Shown here one piece after another: positions 8,900-47,110 of a stretch of DNA of 64,000 nt (the stretch's first letter is position 1; each line of letters begins with the position of its first letter). This stretch comes from Polyangia bacterium (GTDB taxonomy: Bacteria > Myxococcota_A > Polyangia > Nannocystales > Nannocystaceae). The notes under the pieces were generated by a model. That model was not told the DNA's origin and did no database searches. It was given only the letters and a program-made list of their open reading frames with translations. Made by a program: the position numbers and the translations under genes. The stretch lies in contig JAUHWG010000011.1 in NCBI GenBank assembly GCA_030424595.1, positions 129,130-193,129 on the forward strand. The letters are read 5' to 3'.

Positions 8900-9002
8900 T
8901 TCGCCACGTTTGAGCCCTGAGACCGTCTTTGCCGGTCGGGCGTTGGCAGCCTTGTGATGTCGCGTCTCGAACCCCCGGTCCACCGGATGCCCGTCGGCAT
9001 AG

Positions 9003-9100
9003 GGCTGGGCTTGTCGGTGAGCTTGTCAGCGGGCTTGTCGGTGGGCTTGTCGGTGGGCTTGTCGGCAGGTAGCTCGGCAGGTAGCTCGGCGGGCTTGCCG
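9003..9100. repeat. Minisatellite: ~6 units of the 12 bp gggcttgtcggt, followed by 2 units of aggtagctcggc
   Basis: Read directly from the sequence. It is intergenic, between 8899 and 9183. The PTDK-repeat ORF 8677..9123(-) is just this array translated. Confidence 0.85.
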
Positions 9101-11233: not shown

Positions 11234-12652
11234 ATGCCCGTCTCGACCCTCTCAGGCCTCCTCCTCGCCCTTTGGGTAGCGGATCCCTTCAGCTATTCCT
11301 ACAACAGCCAGACCGACCCCAGCGGCGGCGCCGAGGTTGTGCTCAAGGCCAACGAAGACATCGGCGCATTCGAGGTCAAGATCAAGGGCGGCAAGAAGGT
11401 CGTCCAAAAGTCGGTCCCCGGTCTGAAGGCGGGGCAGACCTACAAGGTGCAATGGGTCCAGGGAGCGGAGCGGGTCGCCTACGACATGTCGATCGAGGGC
11501 GCGATCTCCGGGAGCGGCTCCTTTGAGGTCATGCGGCCCTCGGCGGCGAAGACGGTCGGCGGCGGCAAGATCGAGGCGCTCTTCGGGATCAACGACGTCC
11601 GCGAGCGCAAGGTCGCCTACCGGGTCCCCTTTGACCTGGAGAGCTACACGTTCACGGTCTTCGACACCGACGGCAACGTTCTCTCCAAGGACGAGGGCGG
11701 CGGCGGCAACAAGGCCGGTGATCGCCTCTCTCTGCGCTGGGACAGCGACGCGGAGGTGTTCATGGTCAAGCTCGAGGTGGTCGGCACCGCGGGGCAGACC
11801 GCCGAGGACATCAAGGTCACCTGGTCGGTCGACATCCCCCACACGAACATCAAGTTCGACAGCGGCAAGGCGGTGATCCGCGGCGATCAGGAGAAGTTCG
11901 TCGAAGAGGCGGCGATCATCGCGATGTACGAGCTCGCCGGGCTCGAGAAGACCAACAAGGCGGTCGGCGCCAACCTCACGGCGCAGCTCTACATCGTCGG
12001 CTACACCGACACCGTCGGCAAGGCCTCCGACAACAAGCGCCTCAGCGAAGGCCGGGCCAAGGCGATCGCGCAGTACTTCAAGAAGAAGGGCGTCTGGTGC
12101 GAGATCTACTACGCCGGCATGGGCGAGTCGGGCCTCCTGGTCAAGACCGACGACAACGTCGACGAGGAGCGCAACCGTCGGGCCGCGTACATCCTCGGGC
12201 CGCAGAAGCCGGCGGCCGGCGGCCCCATCCCGGGGAAGTGGAAGAAGGCCGCAGAGGCCGGCGCACGCCCCTCGGGCGAGCTGCCCCCCTATCCTGAGAA
12301 GTATCGCGAGGAGCGGGATCGTCGGAAGTACGGGACCAAGGGTGGGGGCTCTTCGTCGAGCGACTCGGGGTCGGGCGGCTCTGGCGGCTCTGGCGGTTCT
12401 GGTGGCGGCTCCGGTTCGGCCCCGAGCGATGACAGCGATGACTACAGCTACTCCGCCGGTAGCGATGGCTACGACGAGAGCTCCTCCTACGACGGCGATG
12501 AGTCGCCCGGTGAGGTCGAGGGCAAGCCCGGCGCGACCGCCAAGGGCTGCTCGGTCGCCGACGACTACGACGGGACCTTGGCTATCGGTCTCCTCGCCGG
12601 CCTCTGGGGCTTCGCTCGGCGACGGCGGACCCGCGTAGCGCAACGGACCTAG
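11234..12652 (+). CDS. OmpA-family protein with a C-terminal MYXO-CTERM sorting tag
   Basis: OmpA_C block LYIVGYTDTVGKASDNKRLSEGRAKAIAQYF. A Gly/Ser-rich linker follows. The C-terminus GCSVADD...AIGLLAGLWGFARRRR is a Cys + hydrophobic + Arg tail, which is the MYXO-CTERM pattern. GGAG sits 9 nt upstream of the ATG at 11234. The ORF track starts at the TTG at 11219. Confidence 0.8.
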   Translation: MPVSTLSGLLLALWVADPFSYSYNSQTDPSGGAEVVLKANEDIGAFEVKIKGGKKVVQKSVPGLKAGQTYKVQWVQGAERVAYDMSIEGAISGSGSFEVMRPSAAKTVGGGKIEALFGINDVRERKVAYRVPFDLESYTFTVFDTDGNVLSKDEGGGGNKAGDRLSLRWDSDAEVFMVKLEVVGTAGQTAEDIKVTWSVDIPHTNIKFDSGKAVIRGDQEKFVEEAAIIAMYELAGLEKTNKAVGANLTAQLYIVGYTDTVGKASDNKRLSEGRAKAIAQYFKKKGVWCEIYYAGMGESGLLVKTDDNVDEERNRRAAYILGPQKPAAGGPIPGKWKKAAEAGARPSGELPPYPEKYREERDRRKYGTKGGGSSSSDSGSGGSGGSGGSGGGSGSAPSDDSDDYSYSAGSDGYDESSSYDGDESPGEVEGKPGATAKGCSVADDYDGTLAIGLLAGLWGFARRRRTRVAQRT

Positions 12653-12700
12653 TCGTCCCGCGCAGCGCAACGGACCGAGTCGTCCCGCGCAACGGACCGG
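12638..12700 (+). repeat. 27-bp tandem repeat (~2.5 copies) made of the last codons plus stop of the OmpA-family gene (gcgcaacggaccTAGtcgtcccgcgca)
   Basis: Copy 1 contains the gene's TAG stop. Copy 2 has GAG at that position. Copy 3 is truncated. Confidence 0.8.
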
Positions 12701-17403: not shown

Positions 17404-19608
17404 TCACATGTTGTTGATGTACTGGATCGCGATCTCGCAGTACGGGTTGATCTCGATCGCGCGCTCAAAGCTCTCGCGGGCGCTGTCGGTGGCGCCGAGG
17501 CCGAGGAGCACCGCGCCGCGATAGGCGTGGACGAGATCGAGCTCCGGCTCCCGCTGCTCTGCGTACGCGAGCAGATCGAGGGCGTCCTGGGCGGCCGCGG
17601 GGTTGCCTCCTGCGGCGCGGTAGCGGGAGAAGGCGAGGGCCGCGTGGAGGACGGCGACGTCGTAGCCGTTTTGGTAGGCGTCCTCGAAGAGCGCCGAGGC
17701 CGAGGCGTAGTCCCCCTCGTTCATCGCCGCGACCGCGTCCTGGTAGCGAGCGCCGCCGATGTCGCCGCTCTCCTCGTCGACCGCGAGATCATCGAAGTCG
17801 AGGTTCGCGAGATCGTCCAGGTCGTCGTCGGAGATGCCCTTGTCGTCGAGGTCGACGTCGCCGAGGTCGACGTCGCCGAGGTCGACTTCGCCGAGGTCGA
17901 TGTCGTCGAGGTCGATGTCGTCGAGGTCGCCCAGGTCGATGTTGTCGTCGAGGTCCCCGAGCTCTTCGTTGAGGTCGTCGATGTCATCGCCGATGTCGCC
18001 GAGGTCGATGTCGTCGAGGTCGATGTCGTCGACCTCCACATCCTCGACGACCTCCTCGATCATGCTGACCTCGTCGAACTCGTCGAGGGTGCTGACCTCG
18101 GCGATGTCGTCGTCGACGTCCGCGAGATCGGGGAGCTCGTCGATCCCGGAGAGGTCGTCCAGATCGATCGCGTCGACCTCCTCGAGGGCGGAGAGCTCGT
18201 CGATCGGGATCGCCTCGATCGAGTCCTCCGGGGACGGGGCCGCGGGCGCCGGTTCGGGCTCGGGCTCGGGCTCGGGCTCGGGGAGCGCGAGGTCATCGAT
18301 GTCGCTGAGGTCGAGATCGTCGAGGTCGGGGAGGTCGTCGATGTCGCCGAGGTCGAGGTCCTCGACCGGGAGGTCCTCGAGGTCGGGTAGGTCCTCGACC
18401 ATCTCGACCTCGTCGACCATCTCGACCATCTCTTCGTCGTCGAGGAGCTCGACCTCGTCGTCAAAGCTCTCCTCGTCGAGGTCGAGGAGCGAGCCGTCGA
18501 GCGTCGTCGGCTCCTCGCGGATGGCGGGCTCCTCGTCGAGATCGCTGAAGTCGGACTCGTCGCCTTGGGTCTGGGCCTGGGAGAGCTTCTCGGCGCGGCG
18601 CACCTTGGCCCGGAGGTCGCGGGTGTCGAGGACGACGCTCTCGTCCTCGTCGAGGGCCGCGACGCCGGCGAACATCTCCTCGTCTTCGGTGAGGAGGGCG
18701 GGCATCCGCGAGGTCGACTGGGCCGCGGAGGGCAGGCGGCTGGGCAGGGGAGTGTCCTCGTACTCGCCGATGACGCTCGCAGGCTCGAAGTCCGGCGCGA
18801 GGTCGGCGTCGTCGAGCCCCTCGGGCTGGAGCTCGGGCTTTTTGGGCTTGGGTCGGGCGAGGAGGCGGCGGGTCTTGAGATCGACCACACCTGCGGCGAT
18901 GAGCCCGTAGAGCAGGGTCGCGGTCCGGGGGACGGGGAGGTCGAGCTCGCCGCTCAGGAGCTCGTCGACGCTGCGGCTGCCGTCGAGACCCTGCAGGACG
19001 TACACCTCTTCCGGGATCAGCTCTAGGGGATCCGCGTTGCTCGTCCAGGCCGGCACCGCGACCGGATACTTGCCGGCGAAGGGGCGGAGCGCGTGACGTG
19101 CTCGGTCGTCGGAGTAGCGCGACTGGATCGCCGAGATGATGATGTTCTCGTTGCACTCGCTGGGCGGCGCCTCGCCCGTGTCGTCGCCGCCGGGCTTGAA
19201 CTGAAAGCGTCCCTCCTCCCACGAGAAGATGTCGCCGAGCTTGCCGCGAAACTGGGCGTCGAGGCCGTACTGGAGGTTGCCCTCGGAGATGAGGCCCATC
19301 TCGATGAGGAGCTCGCCCTGCTTCTTGCCGGTGCGGCGCACCGCCTCGAGGGAGTTGTCGCTCTGCTCTTGGGTGATCAGCCCCTCAGACGCCAGGATCT
19401 GGCCGAGACACTCGGAGATCACGTTGGAGCGCACGGAGACCGGCTTGCCGGCGCGGAAGAAGATGACCTTCTTCGTCTGTCCGTTGAGCAAGTAGAGGCT
19501 GCCGGTGACCTCGGCGCGTGCGATCTGCCGGATCAGCTGGGGAAAGGGGATGCGCTTGAGCGACCCCTTGGTCGGAAACCCTGATTCGGTGTCGGCATGC
19601 TCGGTCAT
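17404..19608 (-). CDS. DUF4388 (PATAN-like) domain protein with a ~230-aa hyper-acidic repetitive linker and a C-terminal TPR-like domain
   Basis: N-terminus LKRIPFPQLIRQIARAEVTGSLYLLNGQTKKVIFFRAGKPV matches the DUF4388 pattern. The central region is ~60% Asp/Glu/Leu/Ile, with 15-18-bp in-frame DNA repeats encoding (D/E)(L/I)(G/D)D(V/I)D units. C-terminal TPR-like helices. Confidence 0.7.
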   Translation of the reverse strand: MTEHADTESGFPTKGSLKRIPFPQLIRQIARAEVTGSLYLLNGQTKKVIFFRAGKPVSVRSNVISECLGQILASEGLITQEQSDNSLEAVRRTGKKQGELLIEMGLISEGNLQYGLDAQFRGKLGDIFSWEEGRFQFKPGGDDTGEAPPSECNENIIISAIQSRYSDDRARHALRPFAGKYPVAVPAWTSNADPLELIPEEVYVLQGLDGSRSVDELLSGELDLPVPRTATLLYGLIAAGVVDLKTRRLLARPKPKKPELQPEGLDDADLAPDFEPASVIGEYEDTPLPSRLPSAAQSTSRMPALLTEDEEMFAGVAALDEDESVVLDTRDLRAKVRRAEKLSQAQTQGDESDFSDLDEEPAIREEPTTLDGSLLDLDEESFDDEVELLDDEEMVEMVDEVEMVEDLPDLEDLPVEDLDLGDIDDLPDLDDLDLSDIDDLALPEPEPEPEPEPAPAAPSPEDSIEAIPIDELSALEEVDAIDLDDLSGIDELPDLADVDDDIAEVSTLDEFDEVSMIEEVVEDVEVDDIDLDDIDLGDIGDDIDDLNEELGDLDDNIDLGDLDDIDLDDIDLGEVDLGDVDLGDVDLDDKGISDDDLDDLANLDFDDLAVDEESGDIGGARYQDAVAAMNEGDYASASALFEDAYQNGYDVAVLHAALAFSRYRAAGGNPAAAQDALDLLAYAEQREPELDLVHAYRGAVLLGLGATDSARESFERAIEINPYCEIAIQYINNM

Positions 19609-19792
19609 GGATCACTCGACGGTGTCGCGCTGCCTGGCGGATGCGCTGCGGGCAGGCTGGCACAGCCGCCGCGCTAGCGCCAAGAGGATATCGCGGTCGC
19701 CGCAGGTCTGGGGGGGCGCGCGCTCTGCGGCCTCGTCCGGTTGGAGAGCGCGCGGGAACGGGCTCTACGCCCTTTTGTCGCGGTCTTGGGGG

Positions 19793-20590
19793 ATGGCAGG
19801 TAGTGTGCGGGCCGTGCAGACGCCGGTTGCAGTGGTCTTGGCGGCGGGGAAAGGCACGCGGATGGGCTCGGATCTGGCGAAGGTCCTCCATCCCGTCGCC
19901 GGAGCGCCGATGGTGTACTACCCGATTCGCTCTGCGCGGGAGGCCGGGGTCGGCGATGTCGTCGTCGTCGTCGGCCATCAGGCGGAGGACGTCCGAGCGA
20001 AGGTACAAGAGGCCTTTCCCGCCGCCCGCTTCGCCCTCCAACGCGAGCAGCGGGGCACCGGCCACGCTGTAGCTTGCGCGCTAGAGGCCCTTGAAGGGGT
20101 TGTTGGCCAGGTCCTGATCCTCAGCGGCGATGTGCCGATGCTGCGAACGCAGACCCTCAGCCGGCTCCTCAAGGCGGCCGAAGGCGCATCCGCGGGGCTC
20201 GCCCTCGCGACGTTTATTCCCCCCTCGGCGAGCGGCTACGGACGGATCCTCCGGGAGGAGGGCCGCGTCGTCGGGATCCGCGAAGAGAAGGACGCGAGCC
20301 CCGAAGAGCGATCCATCGGCGAGTGCAACGCAGGGGTCTACTGCGCCGACCTGGCGCTCTTGCGGGAGGTCCTGCCGATGCTCGGGAGTGACAACGCCCA
20401 GGGCGAGATCTACCTCACGGATGTCGTCGCCGAGGCGGCGCAGCGCGGTGATGTCGCGGCTGTGCTCGTCGACGCCGAAGAGGTCGCCGGGATCAACACG
20501 CGCGAGCAGCTGGCGATCGTCGACGCGCGCCTGCGCGATCAGGGGGCCTCCACGGCCCGGAGCGCGGCGACGAGCTCGTCCATCGTGTAG
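19793..20590 (+). CDS. Nucleotidyltransferase resembling the N-terminal uridyltransferase domain of GlmU; no left-handed beta-helix acetyltransferase domain
   Basis: VAVVLAAGKGTRMGSDLAKVLHPVAG...QREQRGTGHAV matches the GlmU pyrophosphorylase motifs. ATG at 19793. The ORF track's upstream extension is low-complexity. Confidence 0.65.
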   Translation: MAGSVRAVQTPVAVVLAAGKGTRMGSDLAKVLHPVAGAPMVYYPIRSAREAGVGDVVVVVGHQAEDVRAKVQEAFPAARFALQREQRGTGHAVACALEALEGVVGQVLILSGDVPMLRTQTLSRLLKAAEGASAGLALATFIPPSASGYGRILREEGRVVGIREEKDASPEERSIGECNAGVYCADLALLREVLPMLGSDNAQGEIYLTDVVAEAAQRGDVAAVLVDAEEVAGINTREQLAIVDARLRDQGASTARSAATSSSIV

Positions 20591-31440: not shown

Positions 31441-31624
31441 GCGGCAGCGCTCGCTGCGATGAGCTCGACCGGCGAAGGTCGGGGTCGACGGAAGAGGCGG
31501 CTCGGGCGAATGCCCCTGCCGCCTCTGCTTTGGTTCTTGTGGTTCTTGTCCTCTCGTCGCGATGAGTCGCGGCCGTGGCTGGACGAGATCGATCCCAGGC
31601 GGCACGAGCGAAGCTCAGGCCGGA

Positions 31625-31745
31625 CAGGGGCAGAACAGGGGCAGAACAGGGGCAGAACAGGGCCGGAACAGGGCCGGAACAGGGCCGGAGCAGGGCCGGA
31701 ACAGGGCCGGAGCAGGGCCAGAACAGGGTCAGATCGGCGGAGTCT
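31625..31745. repeat. Minisatellite: ~10 units of 12 bp (cagggGcagaac / cagggccggaac / cagggccggagc)
   Basis: Read directly from the sequence. It is intergenic, between convergent genes. The ORFs across it are repeat translations. Confidence 0.85.
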
Positions 31746-36215: not shown

Positions 36216-36641
36216 ATGACGGATCGTGACCTGATCGAGATCGTCGCCGCGCTAAAGCACGATCTCGGCAAATACTCGTCGTGGATGTCGGCGAACCTGA
36301 GCGAGGAGGAGTGGGACGGCCCGCTCTCCGACACCCTCGTCGACGCCCTCTGCCGCGATCTCCTTCGGACGAGGACCCGTCGTGACGGGACGCCTGAGAG
36401 CGCCTGGGAGGTCTGGGACCGGCTTCGGGAGGAGTTGCCCCTGCCCCTACCAGCGCCGGAGCTGGAGGCTGTGGAGGCCGCAGTGGAGGTGCTGCGGGGA
36501 GCCGAACCTGCGCTCCGCGAGGACCGTGAAGCGCTCTCTGCGCTCCGCCCGACCCTGCGGGCCGCGCAGCGGGAGGTCCGAGGAGAGCTCCTACGCCTGC
36601 ACCGACGCCTCCTGCGCATTCAGGAGCAGAGCGGGCGTTGA
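36216..36641 (+). CDS. Hypothetical protein
   Basis: 141-aa ORF with good codon bias, located between the low-GC island and the sigma-54 regulator gene. Confidence 0.4.
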   Translation: MTDRDLIEIVAALKHDLGKYSSWMSANLSEEEWDGPLSDTLVDALCRDLLRTRTRRDGTPESAWEVWDRLREELPLPLPAPELEAVEAAVEVLRGAEPALREDREALSALRPTLRAAQREVRGELLRLHRRLLRIQEQSGR

Positions 36642-36911
36642 GTCTGCCATCTGCGGGTGCGAGGGGGTGGCCGTCGTCGCCGGAGCTGGCGCCAGTCCCA
36701 GCCTGCGGGTGAGGAGACCACGGCTGACTCGGGATGCGAGCGTAGGCCCTCGCGCCCGCGGTTGTGGCGCTAGCACCCTCAAGAGGGCGCTCCGGCGGGG
36801 GGGGGAGGCGCGTCGGGGCGGGACTTTTGCCGCCGCCTCGTCGCTGCCTTCCGTGTACTCTCATCCTCTGCCTCGGCTCGATGTCGAGCGCGTCATGAGG
36901 CTCCGCCCGCG

Positions 36912-38606
36912 ATGTCGTCGATCCTGATCATTGATGACGAGGACAACTACCTCGAGCTTTGCCGGCGATATATGCCGGAGCACGACTTTCTCCCGCCTGC
37001 GCGGAGCTATCGGGACGCCGCGGCGGTGCTCCGTCAACGGGCTCAGGAGATCGATCTCGTCCTCCTGGACGTCCACTTCAACATCGACGAGGAGGAGCTG
37101 CTCCCCGCCGACAAGGCGCCGCTCTTCGCCCGCAGTGATCGCCGCCGGGTGCTGGATCGTCTCTGTCGGACCCAGGGATTGCTCATTCTCGATCGGATCC
37201 GCGCCGATTACCCCGATCTGCCGCTCATCGTGATGACCTCGCGGGATGATCTCCCGCTCGAGGTCGACGCGGAGCGCCTCCACGCTGAGGATTACACCTA
37301 CCTCCTCGATGACGATTACCTCGACGCTCGCTCTCTGCGATTGCAGATTGAGGGGATCCTCGCCCGTCGGGAGCGCCCATCGGCGGAGGAGAGCGGCCCC
37401 TTCTATTGGGGGACGACCCCGGCGATGCTCAACCTCCGCCGCCGCCTCTCGATCCTCGCCCGCGGTCGCCTGCCGATCATCGTCCAGGGCGCCACCGGCA
37501 CCGGCAAGAGCCTGGTCGTCCGCGAACATGTCCACCCGCACTCGCGGCGCTCCGGGCCCTTCGTCGCGGTCGATCTGTCGACGATCCCCAGCGATCTGAT
37601 GGCGGCGCATCTCTTCGGCGTGACCAAGGGCGCCTACACTGGGGCGACGAGCTCCCGCGACGGCGTTCTCGCCCAGGCCGACGGCGGTACGCTCTTTCTC
37701 GACGAGATCGGCAACCTCAGCCTCGAGCTGCAAAAGTCGCTGCTCCTCGTCCTTCAGGAGGGGAGCTACCGTCCGGTCGGCTCCGTCAAGGAGCGCAGCG
37801 TCGACATCAAGCTGGTGGTCGCGACCAACGAGGATCTCGCGACGCTGGTCCGCGAGGGTCGCTTTCGCGAAGACCTCTACATGCGCCTCAACCCCGCGAC
37901 CGCGGTGACGCTCGCGAGCCTCGCCGACCGCCGCGACGACTTCCACGAGCTCTTGAAGTTCTTCGTCCGCAGGGTCGCCTCCGAGGCCTACAACCGCGAT
38001 CTCGTCCTCCAGTACGCCGAGCAGCGGGGGTTGATGCTGCCGAGCGGGAAGGGACCGCTGCCGGTGAGCGTTGGTTCGACGGTGCCCACGCGCTCCGACA
38101 GCACGCGGATCCATTTCCTCTTCCACCCCAGCTCCCTCAAGCTGCTGCGCGGGTTCGACTGGCCGGGGAATTTTCGCCAGTTCGAGATGACCCTGTCCAA
38201 CCTCGTCACCTTCACGCTGGTCGAGCTGGTCGAGCGGGCGTCGCAGGTCGAGCCCGAGGATCCGGGGCAGGCGAGCCGCCCGGACGTCATCCCGATCCCG
38301 GCGAAGACGGTCAACGATCTCCTGCGGCCGATGGCGAAGGCCCATCGTCGCGAGAGCGACGTGCCTGTCGATGAGGGCGAGGGCCGTCCCGTCGGAGTGC
38401 GGGTCTGCTCCGCAGACTCCCTCAACGCGGTCTCCTGCGCCGTCGAGCGGCAGTACCTGGAGGCGCTCTACCGCGACAGCGACGGCGATCTCGGGCAGAT
38501 GGGCCTGTGGCTCCTCGACAATGACGGGGCAGGGCGGAAGATCCAGCTGCGGATGAACCAGCTCGGGATCAAGCTGCGCTCGCTGAAGCGCAAGCGGGGA
38601 GATTGA
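36912..38606 (+). CDS. Sigma-54-dependent transcriptional regulator (atypical N-terminal receiver-like domain, AAA+ sigma-54 interaction domain, C-terminal Fis-type HTH)
   Basis: ILIIDDE...LVLLDVHF receiver-like. Walker A GATGTGKS. GAYTGA (GAFTGA equivalent). GGTLFLDEIG. C-terminal RKIQLRMNQLGIKLRSLKRK Fis-type HTH. Confidence 0.85.
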   Translation: MSSILIIDDEDNYLELCRRYMPEHDFLPPARSYRDAAAVLRQRAQEIDLVLLDVHFNIDEEELLPADKAPLFARSDRRRVLDRLCRTQGLLILDRIRADYPDLPLIVMTSRDDLPLEVDAERLHAEDYTYLLDDDYLDARSLRLQIEGILARRERPSAEESGPFYWGTTPAMLNLRRRLSILARGRLPIIVQGATGTGKSLVVREHVHPHSRRSGPFVAVDLSTIPSDLMAAHLFGVTKGAYTGATSSRDGVLAQADGGTLFLDEIGNLSLELQKSLLLVLQEGSYRPVGSVKERSVDIKLVVATNEDLATLVREGRFREDLYMRLNPATAVTLASLADRRDDFHELLKFFVRRVASEAYNRDLVLQYAEQRGLMLPSGKGPLPVSVGSTVPTRSDSTRIHFLFHPSSLKLLRGFDWPGNFRQFEMTLSNLVTFTLVELVERASQVEPEDPGQASRPDVIPIPAKTVNDLLRPMAKAHRRESDVPVDEGEGRPVGVRVCSADSLNAVSCAVERQYLEALYRDSDGDLGQMGLWLLDNDGAGRKIQLRMNQLGIKLRSLKRKRGD

Positions 38607-38645
38607 TGTTGGGGGCGCTCTACCTCGATGGCGGCGATCTCGGGC

Positions 38646-38727
38646 CCTTGCGCCTGTGGCCCCAGCTGTCGGCGAACCAGGTCGGGAGTGGGCTGCGCTC
38701 GTCGCAGCGCGAGCGGGGAGCTTGATG
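38646..38727 (+). repeat. Degenerate second copy (~80% identical) of the last ~80 nt of the sigma-54 regulator gene, including a stop-equivalent; it is intergenic
   Basis: 38553-38606 (..atgaaccagctcgggatcaagctgcgctcgctgaagcgcaagcggggagattga) versus 38672-38724 (..gcgaaccaggtcgggagtgggctgcgctcgtcgcagcgcgagcggggagcttga). Read in the same frame this gives LRSSQRERGA* versus LRSLKRKRGD*. Confidence 0.7.
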
Positions 38728-41661
38728 TCTCGGGCGATGCAGCTCGCCGCCGCGCTGTGGCTCGTCGCAGGGACCGCCAGCGCAGCGCCGCCGGAGAGTC
38801 CCGGCTTCTCGCTGCCGCGGCCGCCAGCCCTGGAGGGCGACACCGAGGGGACGTCCGGGACCGACTCCGACACAGGTGAGGAGATCGATCCCGAGGTGCT
38901 CCAGGAGCAACGCCAGCTCGAGTTCGATCTTCACCTCTTCCGCGCTCAGCGGCTTGAGCGTGAGGGGAAGATCGACGACGGTATCCGCGAGTACACGGCC
39001 GCGCTCAAGCTCCAGTCGGGCGATCCCGGGGCTCTCCGCGGCCGGGCCAAGCTCCGGTTCAAGCGCACCCGCAAGGGGCAGTGTCCGCGCCGGGCGATCG
39101 AGGATCTCCGGCTGCTGCGGCTCTACGATCCCGCGGGGACGTGGAACGAAGAGCGGGCGACGATCCTCGAGTGGATGGCGCTCTGCGAAGATCGCTACCG
39201 TCGCGAGCGCCTCGACCTCGCGCTGGAGCTCGGCGAAGACGATCCGGCGGCGAGCTATCGGCCGCCGGGGATCCGCTACACGATCGCCGCGCTCCAGACG
39301 GAAGAGGCGGAGCGGGCGGGCCCCGGGCGCGACGGCCAGGAGCTCCGCGACGCCGCGCTTCTCCAGCTCGAGCGCTATCGTCAGGAGTGTTCAGAGGGGG
39401 GACGCCGGCCGAAAGCGGCGGCGCTTAGCCTCCAGGCCGACCTCTATCGCGCCCGGGGGGACATCTCCGAGGCGATCGCGGTCTATCGCGAGTTGGTCGC
39501 GCTCCACCCCGGTGTGCCGGCGGCGGCCGAGGCTGAGCGGGTCGTCGCCGAGCTCCAGCTCGAGGTCGAGCTCACCCGCTTAGAGAAGGAGCAGGGCGGG
39601 CGACCGTCGGAGCGGGCGGAGGCCAGCTACCGGATCGCGGCGGTCGCCCTGCGGCGCGGAGAGCTCGCGAGCGCGGAGGCTGAGCTGCGCAAGGCGATCG
39701 ACGACTCGCCGTGGTTTCCGAAGGCCCACTACCTGCTCGGGCTCGTCCACGCCAAGACGCGCCGCTTCACCGACGCCGTCGAGGAGCTGAAGATGGCGGT
39801 CCGGATGGACCGCTACGACCACGAGGCGCACATCGCCCTTGGTCTGCTCTACAAGAAGGAATTCTCCGGCGCCGAGGATGCCGCGGCGATCGAGCACCTC
39901 GAGCGAGCGCTGGTCCTGCGGCCGGACCTGAACAACCTCCACCTCCTCTTGGGCGAGCTCTACGCCCGCAGCGATCGCGATCTGGCCCGTCGTCACTACG
40001 AGCAGTTTCTCCAGCGGGCAGGCGAGGATGATCCCGATCGGGGCTTCGCCGAGGGGGCGCTGCAAAACCTCAGCCATGAGCTGCGGGTGGAGGAGCCTCT
40101 CTTTGAGATCCAGCCGCCCAGCGATCTGAGGCGCCTCGATCCTGGTCTGCAGAGGATGATCAACGAGGCCTACCTTCGCCACGAGGACGACGAGGACTGG
40201 GCCCAGGCCGAGCGGATCCTCGAGGCGGCGCGGGCCAAGTACCCGGATGAGCCCCAGGTGCTCAACGAGCTGGCGATGGTCGCCTACGCGGACGGTCGTC
40301 CCGGCGATGCTCGACAGTTTTGGGAGCAGAGCCTGGTCATGGACGCGGAGCAGGTCGACGTCCACGAGCGCCTCGGGATCCTCCTGGCGAGCGAGCTGCC
40401 GGAGCAGGCGATAGGCCACCTCGAGCGGGCTGCGGCGCTCGGGTCGAGCAACGCGCGCTTTCGCCTGGCGTCGCTGATGTGGGCGGAGAACGACCTCTTT
40501 CGCGCCTCGGACGTGCTCGATCGCTACCTCGGCGAGGCCGGGCCCTACGATCTCTACTGGGATCGGGCGCAGGTCCTCCGCGAGCGGATGGACCGGCTCT
40601 TCTTTCGGGTCTACCTGATCGCCGGCGGCGTTCTCCTCATCCTCCTGCTGATCCCGGCGGGGATGGTCTTCCGTCGCCTCCGCGGAGCCTCGCTAGAGCA
40701 GCTCTTGGCCCGCGCGCCGAAGTCCTTCCCGGAGGTCGCCCGGATCCTCTCGCTCATCCGCCACGAGATCCTCAAGCACAACACCGCCTTCCTCATCGAC
40801 GTCGGCCGCGCGCTCGAGTTCGACGAGCCGGACGCCGAGGTGCGGGCGGCGATCGTCGCCCGCAGGCTCTTCGGCGACAGCGATGAGCGGCGGCGCAAGG
40901 CGGCGGATCTGCGGATCGCGTCGAGCCGTGACCAGGGGATCTACGGCCGCTTTCTCGGCTACGTCGAGGAGCTGCAGAAGGTCGCGCGGACCCACGGGGT
41001 CACCCTCAACCTCTACCGCAAGGACCCGATCTTCTCGCCGATGATCCGCGCCTTCGAGGATCTGCGCGAGCTCGGAGATCTCCAGCGTCGCGGGAGCGAT
41101 CATCGCAGCCGCAAGCTCGACCTCGCGCAGCGGCTGACCCGCTCCGGTCATGAGCTCGGCCGGCGGGCGTTCGAGCGCCTCAGCTCGCTCATCCAGTCGC
41201 TCTGCGTCGTCGACGTGACGCCGACGATGATCCGCGAGGTCTTCGGCCTCGTCGCGGCCGAGTCCCACTTCGCCCAGGCGAAGATCGCCGACGTGGCCGT
41301 GGTGGGGGAGGGGGCGCAGATCCGGGTGTTTCGCACCGATCTGGAGGACATCCTGACCAACGTGCTCCGCAACTCGCTCCACTCGAGCGTGCTCTACGGG
41401 CCCTCGCCTGCGCAGATCGGGGTCGCCTTGAGCACCGAGGTCGATGAGATCACAGGCCTCAGCACCTTGGCCATCCGGATCCAGGATCGTTCGACCGAAA
41501 AGCTCTCCAACGAGATGCTCCGCGGCCGCTATGTTGAGCGAGGGATGGGGATTACGGTCGACCTGCTCTCGCGTTACGATGGGGCGATCGCGGTCGAGCC
41601 GGAGCCCGGGTGGGAGAAGGCCGTCGTGTTGCGCTTCTTCACCGTGGAGGACACCCCGTGA
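38725..41661 (+). CDS. Sensor histidine-kinase-like protein: signal peptide, large periplasmic TPR domain, one TM helix, cytoplasmic HisKA-like + HATPase_c
   Basis: Signal LAAALWLVAGTASA. Multiple TPR-like repeats (AHYLLGLVHAKTRRFTDAVEELKMAV, AHIALGLLYKK). TM VYLIAGGVLLILLLIPAGMVF. SLIRHEILKHN (H-box-like). LTNVLRNSLHSS (N-box). ERGMGITVDLLSRYDGAIAV (G2). Confidence 0.72.
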   Translation: MSRAMQLAAALWLVAGTASAAPPESPGFSLPRPPALEGDTEGTSGTDSDTGEEIDPEVLQEQRQLEFDLHLFRAQRLEREGKIDDGIREYTAALKLQSGDPGALRGRAKLRFKRTRKGQCPRRAIEDLRLLRLYDPAGTWNEERATILEWMALCEDRYRRERLDLALELGEDDPAASYRPPGIRYTIAALQTEEAERAGPGRDGQELRDAALLQLERYRQECSEGGRRPKAAALSLQADLYRARGDISEAIAVYRELVALHPGVPAAAEAERVVAELQLEVELTRLEKEQGGRPSERAEASYRIAAVALRRGELASAEAELRKAIDDSPWFPKAHYLLGLVHAKTRRFTDAVEELKMAVRMDRYDHEAHIALGLLYKKEFSGAEDAAAIEHLERALVLRPDLNNLHLLLGELYARSDRDLARRHYEQFLQRAGEDDPDRGFAEGALQNLSHELRVEEPLFEIQPPSDLRRLDPGLQRMINEAYLRHEDDEDWAQAERILEAARAKYPDEPQVLNELAMVAYADGRPGDARQFWEQSLVMDAEQVDVHERLGILLASELPEQAIGHLERAAALGSSNARFRLASLMWAENDLFRASDVLDRYLGEAGPYDLYWDRAQVLRERMDRLFFRVYLIAGGVLLILLLIPAGMVFRRLRGASLEQLLARAPKSFPEVARILSLIRHEILKHNTAFLIDVGRALEFDEPDAEVRAAIVARRLFGDSDERRRKAADLRIASSRDQGIYGRFLGYVEELQKVARTHGVTLNLYRKDPIFSPMIRAFEDLRELGDLQRRGSDHRSRKLDLAQRLTRSGHELGRRAFERLSSLIQSLCVVDVTPTMIREVFGLVAAESHFAQAKIADVAVVGEGAQIRVFRTDLEDILTNVLRNSLHSSVLYGPSPAQIGVALSTEVDEITGLSTLAIRIQDRSTEKLSNEMLRGRYVERGMGITVDLLSRYDGAIAVEPEPGWEKAVVLRFFTVEDTP

Positions 41662-42137
41662 GCGTCAACGCCACCGAGATCGAGGTGCTGGTCGTCGAAG
41701 ACGGCAACGAGTACCTGACCAACCTCAGCACCTTCGTCGCCGGCGGGATCCACTACACACAGGCGCAAAACGGCGCGGACGCCTGTGCGATGGCGTTGCA
41801 GCTCCGGCCGGACATCATCTATCTCGACATGCGCTTCGATCGGATCCCCTTCGAGGAGCTGCTCGGCGACATGGTCTCCGCGACCGCTCGCTTTAACGGT
41901 GACGTCGCCCGGGCCCGGACCTTTCTGCAGGACAACCAGGGGCTCTTCATCCTCCGCGCGCTGCGTGATGCCGGCTACCGCGGCCCGGTGATCCTGTCCT
42001 ACGACTTCGGCGGTGAGGAGCGGCGCTTCCGCGCCCTCTCGGCCAAGGACCCTGCCCTCGACTACTGTCCAGACTACGCCGACGCGACGACGATCCGCGC
42101 GGCGATCATGAAGGCCGCGAAGCGCGAGCCCCACTGA
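41658..42137 (+). CDS. Single-domain response-regulator-like protein (REC), translationally coupled to the upstream kinase (GTGA overlap)
   Basis: EVLVVEDGNEY...DIIYLDMRFD...FILRAL...VILSYD; acidic pocket and phospho-Asp context present. GTG start at 41658. Confidence 0.6.
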   Translation: MSVNATEIEVLVVEDGNEYLTNLSTFVAGGIHYTQAQNGADACAMALQLRPDIIYLDMRFDRIPFEELLGDMVSATARFNGDVARARTFLQDNQGLFILRALRDAGYRGPVILSYDFGGEERRFRALSAKDPALDYCPDYADATTIRAAIMKAAKREPH

Positions 42138-45931: not shown

Positions 45932-46776
45932 GCCCGCGGGCGGTCCTCAAGATCGGCGGCGATCTGCTCTCAAGGCCGGAGGCGCTCTCGGAGGTGCTCC
46001 GCGACGTCGCCTCGCTGGTCGCTGAGGGGTGGCGCTTCGTCCTCTGTCACGGCGGTGGGCCCCAGGCCAGCGATCTTCAGGCGCGCCTCGGCATGCTGAC
46101 GCGCAAGGTCGGCGGCCGGAGGATCACCGACACGGCCACGCTTCAGGTGATGAAGCAGGTGCTCGCCGGGGAGGTGAACGTCGATCTCGTCGCGACCGCG
46201 CTGGCGGCGGGGATCGACGCGATCGGCCTCTCAGGGGTCAGCGGAGGGCTCGTGAAGGCACGACGGCGGCCTCCGATCGTCGTCAGCGGAGGGGGCGACG
46301 CGCCGATCGACTTCGGCTATGTCGGCGATGTCGTGGGCATCCGCACGGAGCTCATCGAGCATCTTTGGGCGGGCGGTTGGACGCCTGTGCTCAGCACGCT
46401 GGGGGTCGACACTGAGGCTGAGGGGGCCTCTGCGCCTGTCTTTAATATCAACGCGGATACGGTCTCGGCGGCGATCGCTGGCGCTCTGAAGGCCGATCAC
46501 CTCTTCGCGATGACCAACGTGCCTGGGGTTCTCCGCGACAAGGACGACCTGACCACTCGGATCCCGCGACTGACCTCGAGCGAGGCGAAGCGGGCGATCG
46601 CCGACGGGATCATCGTCGGCGGGATGATCCCGAAGATCGAGGAGGCGCTGCGCAACCTGGCGCGAGGTATCGGCGCGATACACATCCTCGGCGTCGGTGC
46701 GGGGGTGCTCGCGGAGGAGGCGGCGACGCCGGGCTCGCGCGGAACGGTGCTCGTCGCGGGTTCGGCGAGCGCGTAG
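45928..46776 (+). CDS. argB: Acetylglutamate kinase
   Basis: AVLKIGGDLL...FVLCHGGGPQ...NINADTVSAAIAGAL amino-acid-kinase motifs. The GTG start overlaps the argC stop (GTGA). Confidence 0.9.
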   Translation: MSPRAVLKIGGDLLSRPEALSEVLRDVASLVAEGWRFVLCHGGGPQASDLQARLGMLTRKVGGRRITDTATLQVMKQVLAGEVNVDLVATALAAGIDAIGLSGVSGGLVKARRRPPIVVSGGGDAPIDFGYVGDVVGIRTELIEHLWAGGWTPVLSTLGVDTEAEGASAPVFNINADTVSAAIAGALKADHLFAMTNVPGVLRDKDDLTTRIPRLTSSEAKRAIADGIIVGGMIPKIEEALRNLARGIGAIHILGVGAGVLAEEAATPGSRGTVLVAGSASA

Positions 46777-46928
46777 CGTGGTGCTCGCGGAGGAGGCGGC
46801 GACGCCGGGCTCGCGCGGAACGGTGCTCGTCGCGGGTTCGGCGAGCGCGTAGCGTGGTGCTCGCGGAGGAGGCGGTGGCGCCGGGCTCGCGCGGAACGGT
46901 GCTCGTCGCGGGTTCGGCGAGCGCGTAG
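46701..46928 (+). repeat. 76-bp unit present in 3 tandem copies; copy 1 is the last 76 nt of argB including TAG, and copies 2-3 are downstream
   Basis: The period is exactly 76 nt (gcgtag ends at 46776, 46852 and 46928). Copies differ at only 2-3 positions. Confidence 0.85.
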
Positions 46929-47110
46929 AGGATGCTCCCAGAGGAGACAGCGATCGCAGATCGCAGCGGGAGTGGTGGTGACCGCTGCATCCGCCTTCAA
47001 TGAGCGCTGGCATACGTTCGATTCCGCAGGGCGAGCTTGGCCCAGGGTCGGGAGCGCGTCCGTCGTCGCGACCTTCGAAGGGGCGCTCGGCGGCGTGTTA
47101 CAACCATTCC

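Follow-up and report, generated by a model that had tools for sequence, protein, structure and literature searches.

Organization of the locus

The window analyzed here, a 64,000-nucleotide stretch of a Nannocystaceae genome, contains an operon in which a sigma-54-dependent regulator gene is followed by the gene of a predicted histidine kinase. The apparent intergenic spacer between the two is itself a 39-codon open reading frame (ORF) with a TGATG at either end. The features of the locus are as follows.

36912–38606, plus strand: regulator gene, 564 amino acids, an NtrC-family sigma-54-dependent response regulator by its Pfam matches; stop codon TGA at 38604–38606
38458–38609, plus strand: parent repeat unit, 152 nt, comprising the last 49 regulator codons, their stop codon, and the TGATGT in which this stop and the downstream start overlap (from alignments)
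38514–38543, plus strand: ten parental codons (LDNDGAGRKI) absent from every copy, as a 30-nt gap common to all four copies
38596–38601, plus strand: G-rich, Shine–Dalgarno (SD)-like GGGGAG ahead of the first ATG
38604–38608, plus strand: first TGATG junction, in which the regulator stop overlaps the first ATG (38606–38608)
38606–38725, plus strand: remnant ORF, 39 codons and a stop (MLGALYLDGGDLGPLRLWPQLSANQVGSGLRSSQRERGA), present in the ORF list and called as a gene in public assemblies
38610–38728, plus strand: decayed head-to-tail copy, 119 nt, about 78% identical to the parent unit
38715–38727, plus strand: SD-like GGGGAG (38715–38720) and second TGATG junction, in which the remnant stop (38723–38725) overlaps the kinase ATG (38725–38727)
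38725–41661, plus strand: 978-amino-acid protein with a signal peptide, TPR repeats, a transmembrane segment and a predicted divergent, DHp-CA-like histidine kinase module at its C-terminus
41658–42137, plus strand: next gene of the operon, 159 amino acids, belonging to no family (from sequence, and gene calls in L020 and L028)

The upstream gene has the features expected of an NtrC-family sigma-54 activator, namely a predicted AAA+ domain with a GAFTGA-type loop and a receiver. Pfam matches Sigma54_activat at E=9e-54 and Response_reg at 32.7 bits (cut-off 30.2), indicating a weak receiver; the loop motif reads GAYTGA in the translation, and the NCBIfam matches are ntrC-like, all under the equivalog cut-offs. 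The C-terminal 70 residues are strongly conserved across orthologues. This tail had been labeled a Fis-type helix-turn-helix (HTH) in the initial annotation, an assignment that is plausible but not borne out by a significant match: Pfam HTH_8 gives no match even at E≤10, and a Fis-like protein ranks first and in the correct place in a PDB profile search, yet only at E=0.16. By weak analogy with Fis, the LDNDGAGRKI codons may correspond to the part of the HTH that runs from the last residues of its first helix through the turn into the beginning of the recognition helix.

The region 5′ of the regulator gene (window ~36640–36911, compared with L028 9596–10000 and with L029) is highly rearranged among close relatives, with 160–172-nt indels and 0.156 mismatch where it can be aligned. 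It contains a G11-like run at 36790–36802. Upstream of its position 550, L013 shows no alignment with the window at all.

The downstream protein is missed by family profiles. Pfam detects only its TPR repeats, with no HisKA or HATPase_c match even at E≤10, NCBIfam returns nothing, and a sequence-profile search of the kinase module against the PDB gave nothing useful. The last 340 residues, modeled with AlphaFold2 on 16 homologues, reach a pLDDT of 83.8, and the best Foldseek matches of the model in the PDB are the DHp-CA structures of CpxA, HK853 and LvrB (E 5e-8 to 1e-6); almost all of the best 50 matches are histidine kinases, but the TM-scores are just 0.3–0.5. The family shares an invariant histidine in RHEILKHN, an N-box-like NVLRN and a GMG motif, and H42, N241, N245, D283, G302 and G304 are invariant in the module. 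Predicted fold and conserved H/N/G residues together identify the gene product as a divergent TPR-sensor histidine kinase, in agreement with the kinase label it had been given from sequence alone. The regulator and kinase genes look like a two-component system. A homologue search for the kinase family yielded 30 matches, the most distant at 31–33% identity, and the family seems to be confined to Nannocystaceae.

Overlapping junctions are used throughout the operon. In addition to the TGATG overlaps at 38604–38608 and 38723–38727, the GTG start of the 159-amino-acid gene overlaps the kinase stop as GTGA (41658–41661). On the minus strand, a 670-codon ORF (36861–38873) covers the regulator gene in full, together with the remnant, in antisense; given the strong family matches of the plus-strand gene, it is regarded as an artefact of high GC content.

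A decayed tandem duplication across the stop/start junction

The initial annotation had described about 80 nt of the spacer as a decayed duplicate, roughly 80% identical to the 3′ coding end of the regulator gene. The similarity is real and far above chance, but its extent had been underestimated: the copy is 119 nt long, derives from a 152-nt unit and is about 78% identical to it. Only the 3′ two-thirds of the copy had been recognized, and the stop/start junction with its ATG was duplicated as well. The copy begins at the base directly after the end of the parent unit, on the same strand and collinear with it, and covers all but 3 bases of the 118-nt gap between regulator and kinase (38607–38724). 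Relative to the parent unit, it carries in-frame deletions of 3 nt and 30 nt. In the corresponding frame, the alignment reproduces the peptide comparison reported previously, ...LRSSQRERGA* versus ...LRSLKRKRGD*.

A local alignment of 38440–38610 with 38607–38730 scores 86, compared with 16.9 ± 2.7 (maximum 30) for 500 mononucleotide shuffles. The score lies 26 standard deviations above the shuffles and is not a chance product of GC-rich sequence. A repeat search resolves the duplication into three collinear direct-repeat blocks, with offsets of 152, 149 and 119:

D15: 38458–38484 and 38610–38636, 81% identity
D11: 38483–38514 and 38632–38663, 84% identity
D7: 38543–38627 and 38662–38746, 75% identity

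In a blastn self-search of the 64-kb window, two blocks of the copy are recovered at E=1.3e-5 and E=7e-9. The only other comparable self-match is the tail of argB, besides the repeats of an acidic-repeat gene and an 11-nt microsatellite.

The copy is no assembly artefact, since a Logan assembly (L020) is 100% identical to the window allele and diverged alleles of the copy occur in three more lineages, from other samples. A JGI contig (L019, 3300036763, equivalent to window 36768–38611) is 99.95% identical to the window and stops 5 nt past the regulator stop; its end, at the start of the duplicate, shows the diagnostic TGATGTTG and may be a repeat-caused assembly break.

No microhomology is readable at the breakpoint, TGATGT/TGG, in the carrier clade. 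A GGCGCT microhomology shared by kinase start and regulator was considered as a mediator of the duplication and discarded, as it rested on the kinase starts of distant orthologues.

The first ATG of the remnant served as the kinase start until the duplication, and copy-free close relatives use the first junction directly for the kinase gene. Because 152 mod 3 = 2, the duplicated tail keeps its original frame when read from this ATG at 38606. The SD-like motif ahead of it differs among lineages, occurring as GGGGAG, GGGGGG or GGGGTG.

Phylogenetic distribution of the copy

Closer relatives were gathered by a metagenome scan and from 90% protein clusters. The copy is present in four close lineages and absent from 12 related ones, two of them close and ten more distant, which bears out the earlier proposal of a decayed tandem duplicate of the regulator 3′ end at the level of orthologous loci. 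Remnant lengths below are those of the ORF, which in each carrier runs from the ATG of one TGATG to the TGA of the other.

Window (W): copy present, remnant of 39 codons
L024: copy present, remnant of 34 codons
L025/L026/L030: copy present, remnant of 40 codons
L031: copy present, remnant of 38 codons
L013 (= L021/L022/L023; ~93% nucleotide identity): copy absent, TGATG
L027: copy absent, TGATG
Ten orthologous Nannocystaceae loci (L001, L002, L003–L007, L008, L010 and L012; kinase identity to the window 51–83%): copy absent, genes overlapping (TGATG) or 0–10 nt apart

With a single copy in the outgroups, the duplicated state is derived. Synonymous divergence (dS) is 0.086 between W and L024, 0.18–0.19 between W and L025 and between L024 and L025 (regulator), and 0.16–0.18 from L031 to W, L024 and L028 (kinase). 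It rises to 0.26–0.33 between the carriers and L021/L029 and to 0.47–0.52 between the carriers and L027. Judged by regulator and kinase dS, the four carriers belong to one clade. All four copies have the 30-nt deletion and many substitutions in common, indicating a single duplication event. The 152-nt tandem duplication across the regulator-stop/kinase-start junction thus has a single origin, in the common ancestor of a small clade of Nannocystaceae.

Sequence decay of the copy

The copy differs from its parent at 25 of 114 aligned nucleotides, with a nonsynonymous-to-synonymous ratio of 21:4, and omega among the copies is ~1–1.7. Between W and L028, the p-distance is 0.148 for the remnant, 0.122 for intergenic and 0.049 for coding sequence. 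Parsimony on three copies places 14–18 changes on the stem, or 13–14 when L031 is added by hand. The 14 resolved stem changes comprise nine AT-to-GC changes (35 AT sites), two GC-to-AT changes (75 GC sites) and three G/C transversions. Per-site rates, which agree between the copy and fourfold-degenerate sites, are listed below; those of the copy cover its whole path to the window, and those of fourfold-degenerate sites the time since the L021 split.

AT to GC: copy 0.34; fourfold sites 0.2–0.4 (only 5 AT sites)
GC to AT: copy 0.067; fourfold sites 0.03–0.06
Between G and C: copy 0.067; fourfold sites 0.07–0.10

The copy decays at about the intergenic rate, roughly neutrally and with an AT-to-GC bias. 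A fairly young copy has reached its present low identity because unconstrained decay drifts toward high GC, and most of its changes are nonsynonymous because the AT sites stood at codon positions 1 and 2. On a small scale, the remnant thereby shows how strongly substitution is biased from AT to GC in a GC-rich myxobacterium where protein constraint no longer acts.

The stem changes (13–14) and the copy–parent divergence (0.22) exceed the ~6.6 changes expected for a duplication at the L021/L029 split, and binomial tests of the share of changes on the stem give p=0.003 or lower. Constant-rate dating of the duplication was abandoned, as the stem carries about twice the changes expected at that split. 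This excess reflects either an older duplication that was later lost from the L021/L029 lineage, precise loss by recombination between the repeats being easy, or accelerated early evolution. The many early changes on a short stem, 13–14 substitutions and the loss of ten codons, might in addition reflect selection for inactivating an HTH fragment that stood on its own. With its sequence decayed and ten presumed HTH codons lost, the copy peptide is probably no functional DNA-binding domain.

The first ~40 nt of the remnant (window 38606–38647, and likewise in L024, L025 and L031) encode MLEALYRD(S)GGDLG and have just a single substitution from the stem, plus a few specific to individual lineages, compared with 12 or more in the remainder of the copy. 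The ribosome-binding site (RBS) of the kinase does not explain this 5′ conservation; initiation-region constraint, gene conversion and chance are possible causes. At the other end, the four alleles show no difference in the last ~32 nt up to and over the kinase ATG.

Preservation of the reading frame

Both TGATG junctions are kept in all four carrier lineages, and the length of the frame between them has changed only in whole codons. The inferred length changes are −30 on the stem, −3 in W and L024, −15 in L024, −6 and +6 in L025 and −6 in L031; the gaps in a MAFFT alignment of the remnant alleles are 3, 18, 30 and 36 nt. At least six indel events are thus inferred, all multiples of three. In a null set of 21.7 kb of the window aligned with L028 and L029, only 6 of 39, 11 of 58 and 12 of 62 intergenic indels (15–19%) are multiples of three. 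At such rates, the probability that every indel would preserve the frame is 2e-4 for five events and ~5e-5 for six (by extrapolation). Moreover, no indels of 1–2 nt occur among the carrier alleles, versus ~2 expected over the tree.

The repeat context of these indels limits the strength of this test. Three or four of them fall in GGC or CTGCGG tri- or hexanucleotide repeats, where slippage yields multiples of three without selection, and the probability is ~0.04 when just the two indels outside such repeats are counted. The absence of stop codons was likewise set aside as a sign of selection, since neutral GC-biased simulations give P=0.55–0.74. Conservation of frame and end points but not of peptide, the pattern that would characterize a relay-type small ORF, is therefore found here with a P value between 5e-5 and 0.04, depending on how the indels in repeats are treated.

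The consequences of a frameshift differ between the two alternative frames. Once shifted into the regulator frame, ribosomes would run past the kinase ATG and terminate at 38877–38879; once shifted into that of the kinase, they would make a kinase with an N-terminal extension.

A possible relay of translational coupling

These observations are compatible with a role of the remnant in passing translation from one gene to the next. The duplicated unit held a stop codon, an RBS and a start codon, so that both genes stayed intact after the duplication. The former kinase ATG (38606) now precedes the copied end of the regulator gene, in frame with it, and the remnant would still be translated by termination–reinitiation at the first TGATG. 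Selection would hold it as a single open frame that closes exactly at the second TGATG, where ribosomes arriving from the regulator would pass to the kinase start; otherwise they would come off 118 nt before it or run over it out of frame.

Several features speak to this proposal. At birth, the upstream context of the first ATG was exactly that of a working kinase start, and its TGATG and G-rich motif are still there, making it probable that this ATG is translated. Coupling has been found to be efficient only at spacings of −4 to +3 nt and to be 3–10-fold lower by +40 nt (PMC12548453), so that an untranslated gap of 118 nt would be expected to uncouple the genes. The remnant has been retained across a synonymous divergence of ~0.18 between carriers. 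Against a relay, the kinase ATG has an SD-like GGGGAG of its own and might need no coupling, and the corresponding motif ahead of the first ATG is not constant among the lineages.

On balance, the chances appear even that the remnant is translated and relays coupling from regulator to kinase, which would give a sharper form to the suggestion in the initial annotation that the duplicate affects translational coupling: it is the preserved frame of the remnant that would let coupling be relayed. The fuller proposal, held more tentatively and at slightly below even probability, is that the ORF was born from the duplication of a junction and has been kept only as a frame-preserved "ribosome relay" that chains two termination–reinitiation events, with selection acting on frame and end points and not on the peptide.

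Alternative explanations

The strongest competitor, which is possible although we consider it rather doubtful, is a neutral relic: a junk duplicate on its way to deletion, with the kinase translated from its own SD-like sequence, and with an open frame and codon-sized indels that are by-products of GC-rich, codon-periodic and repeat-prone sequence. The substitution rate of the copy, which equals that of intergenic DNA, and an omega of about 1 or above are what such a relic would show; the probability that all copies would remain open under neutrality is 0.55, several indels lie within the tri- and hexamer repeats, and the GGGGAG ahead of the kinase ATG would give that gene an initiation signal. 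The relic is harder to reconcile with the indel record, in which at least six of six events are multiples of three against the 15–19% of adjacent intergenic DNA and the expected short indels are missing, and with the survival of both TGATG junctions in every carrier lineage. Should the relay be wrong, the locus is a decaying duplication of the ordinary kind.

It is improbable that the remnant encodes a functional micro-protein, such as an anti-regulator descended from the C-terminal domain of the regulator. The ORF is conserved as an ORF, its first ~13 codons are unusually parent-like and a C-terminal ...RERGA is common to the copies, as a functional peptide would predict. However, the 3′ conservation is accounted for by the kinase RBS, the middle of the peptide varies in length and sequence in each lineage, and the ten-codon core of the presumed HTH is deleted. 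Neither omega among the copies nor the excess of nonsynonymous changes relative to the parent points to constraint on the peptide. A family search with the remnant peptide gave no match, and only 3 clusters of the remnant protein were found among 5.8 billion proteins.

Still less probable is a regulatory RNA element between the genes, whether a terminator, an attenuator, a structured spacer or an internal promoter. The initial annotation had proposed such a regulatory RNA structure, which finds no backing in the folding energy of the region (MFE z=−0.56 versus shuffles). Terminator-like, sigma-70-like and sigma-54 promoter-like sites are all absent from 38300–39000, the sequence is not conserved from allele to allele, and the predicted stem sequences are deleted or altered in L024 and L031.

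Chance similarity inflated by GC-rich sequence, an assembly artefact of the kind that the break in the L019 contig might suggest, and import from a foreign orthologue are effectively refuted by the alignment score, by the presence of the copy in independent assemblies and as four diverged alleles, by copy–parent differences that are unique states found in none of the 12 orthologous tails, and by the inferred ancestral state that the copy has where the window parent and L013 differ.

Relationship to known systems

Neither short tandem duplication nor TGATG coupling is new in itself. A limited literature search found no description of a relay ORF made by duplication of a stop/start junction.

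The two junctions resemble TGATG termination–reinitiation pairs with −1 spacing (Huber et al. 2019, PMC6728339; Brown & Wade 2025, PMC12548453): both are TGATG, each with a G-rich SD-like motif 4 nt upstream, and in copy-free relatives one such junction joins regulator to kinase directly. Unlike in those pairs, two junctions are chained here through a 34–40-codon ORF whose peptide is apparently meaningless, and the coupling is a prediction. The proposed relay also recalls translated upstream or leader ORFs that are coupled to the following gene through an overlapping stop/start, as reported for Mycobacterium tuberculosis (PMC11260477); in both, the act of translating a short ORF rather than its product would set the translation of the next gene. 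The remnant differs from such ORFs in lying between two genes of an operon, in deriving visibly from a duplicated gene end and in having no known sensing role.

If the relay is real, the locus would be a clean natural example of an operon absorbing a structural mutation. A duplication that would otherwise part two coupled genes by 150 nt would have been tolerated because the start codon was duplicated too, and it would have created a filler ORF selected for its frame only. The remnant also illustrates the birth of an ORF without peptide function. For annotation, "hypothetical 39-aa proteins" of this kind should be recognized as gene-end remnants.

The argB tail and other repeats in the window

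The initial annotation had drawn a parallel with a pristine 3′-terminal duplication at argB. The parallel holds for the class of event, since there too the 3′ end, stop included, is repeated head to tail as 76-nt copies. At both loci the protein is unchanged because the copied 3′ end includes the stop, leaving the extra copy free to decay. The loci differ in age and setting. The argB copies are 95–100% identical and lie ~8 kb downstream in genuinely intergenic DNA ahead of a separate gene, whereas the regulator copy is old (~78%), spans a stop/start overlap and keeps an open frame from junction to junction.

The last 76 nt of argB, including its TAG stop, occur as three head-to-tail copies (100%, 100% and 95% identity) at window 46704–46931 (to ~46960), followed by an older, partial and decayed copy (AGGATGCTCCCAGAGGAGACAGCG...). 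Among relatives, L028 has decayed copies only (19782–19900) and L029 essentially none, which suggests repeated birth and decay of 3′-end duplications at argB.

Four further repeat tracts occur in the window. An 11-nt microsatellite (ACAGGGGCAGA / ACAGGGCCGGA) at 31602–31744 has ~13 copies, and its period is not a multiple of three. At 17774–18460, repeats with periods of 15 and 9 nt (GTCGTCGAGGTCGAT-like) form a long tract that presumably lies in a minus-strand gene for an acidic repeat protein rich in Asp and Glu. A 27-nt tandem pair at 12630–12683 is 93% identical, with TAG triplets in one copy, and a 12-nt repeat (GGGCTTGTCGGT) is present in 5–6 copies at 8994–9077.
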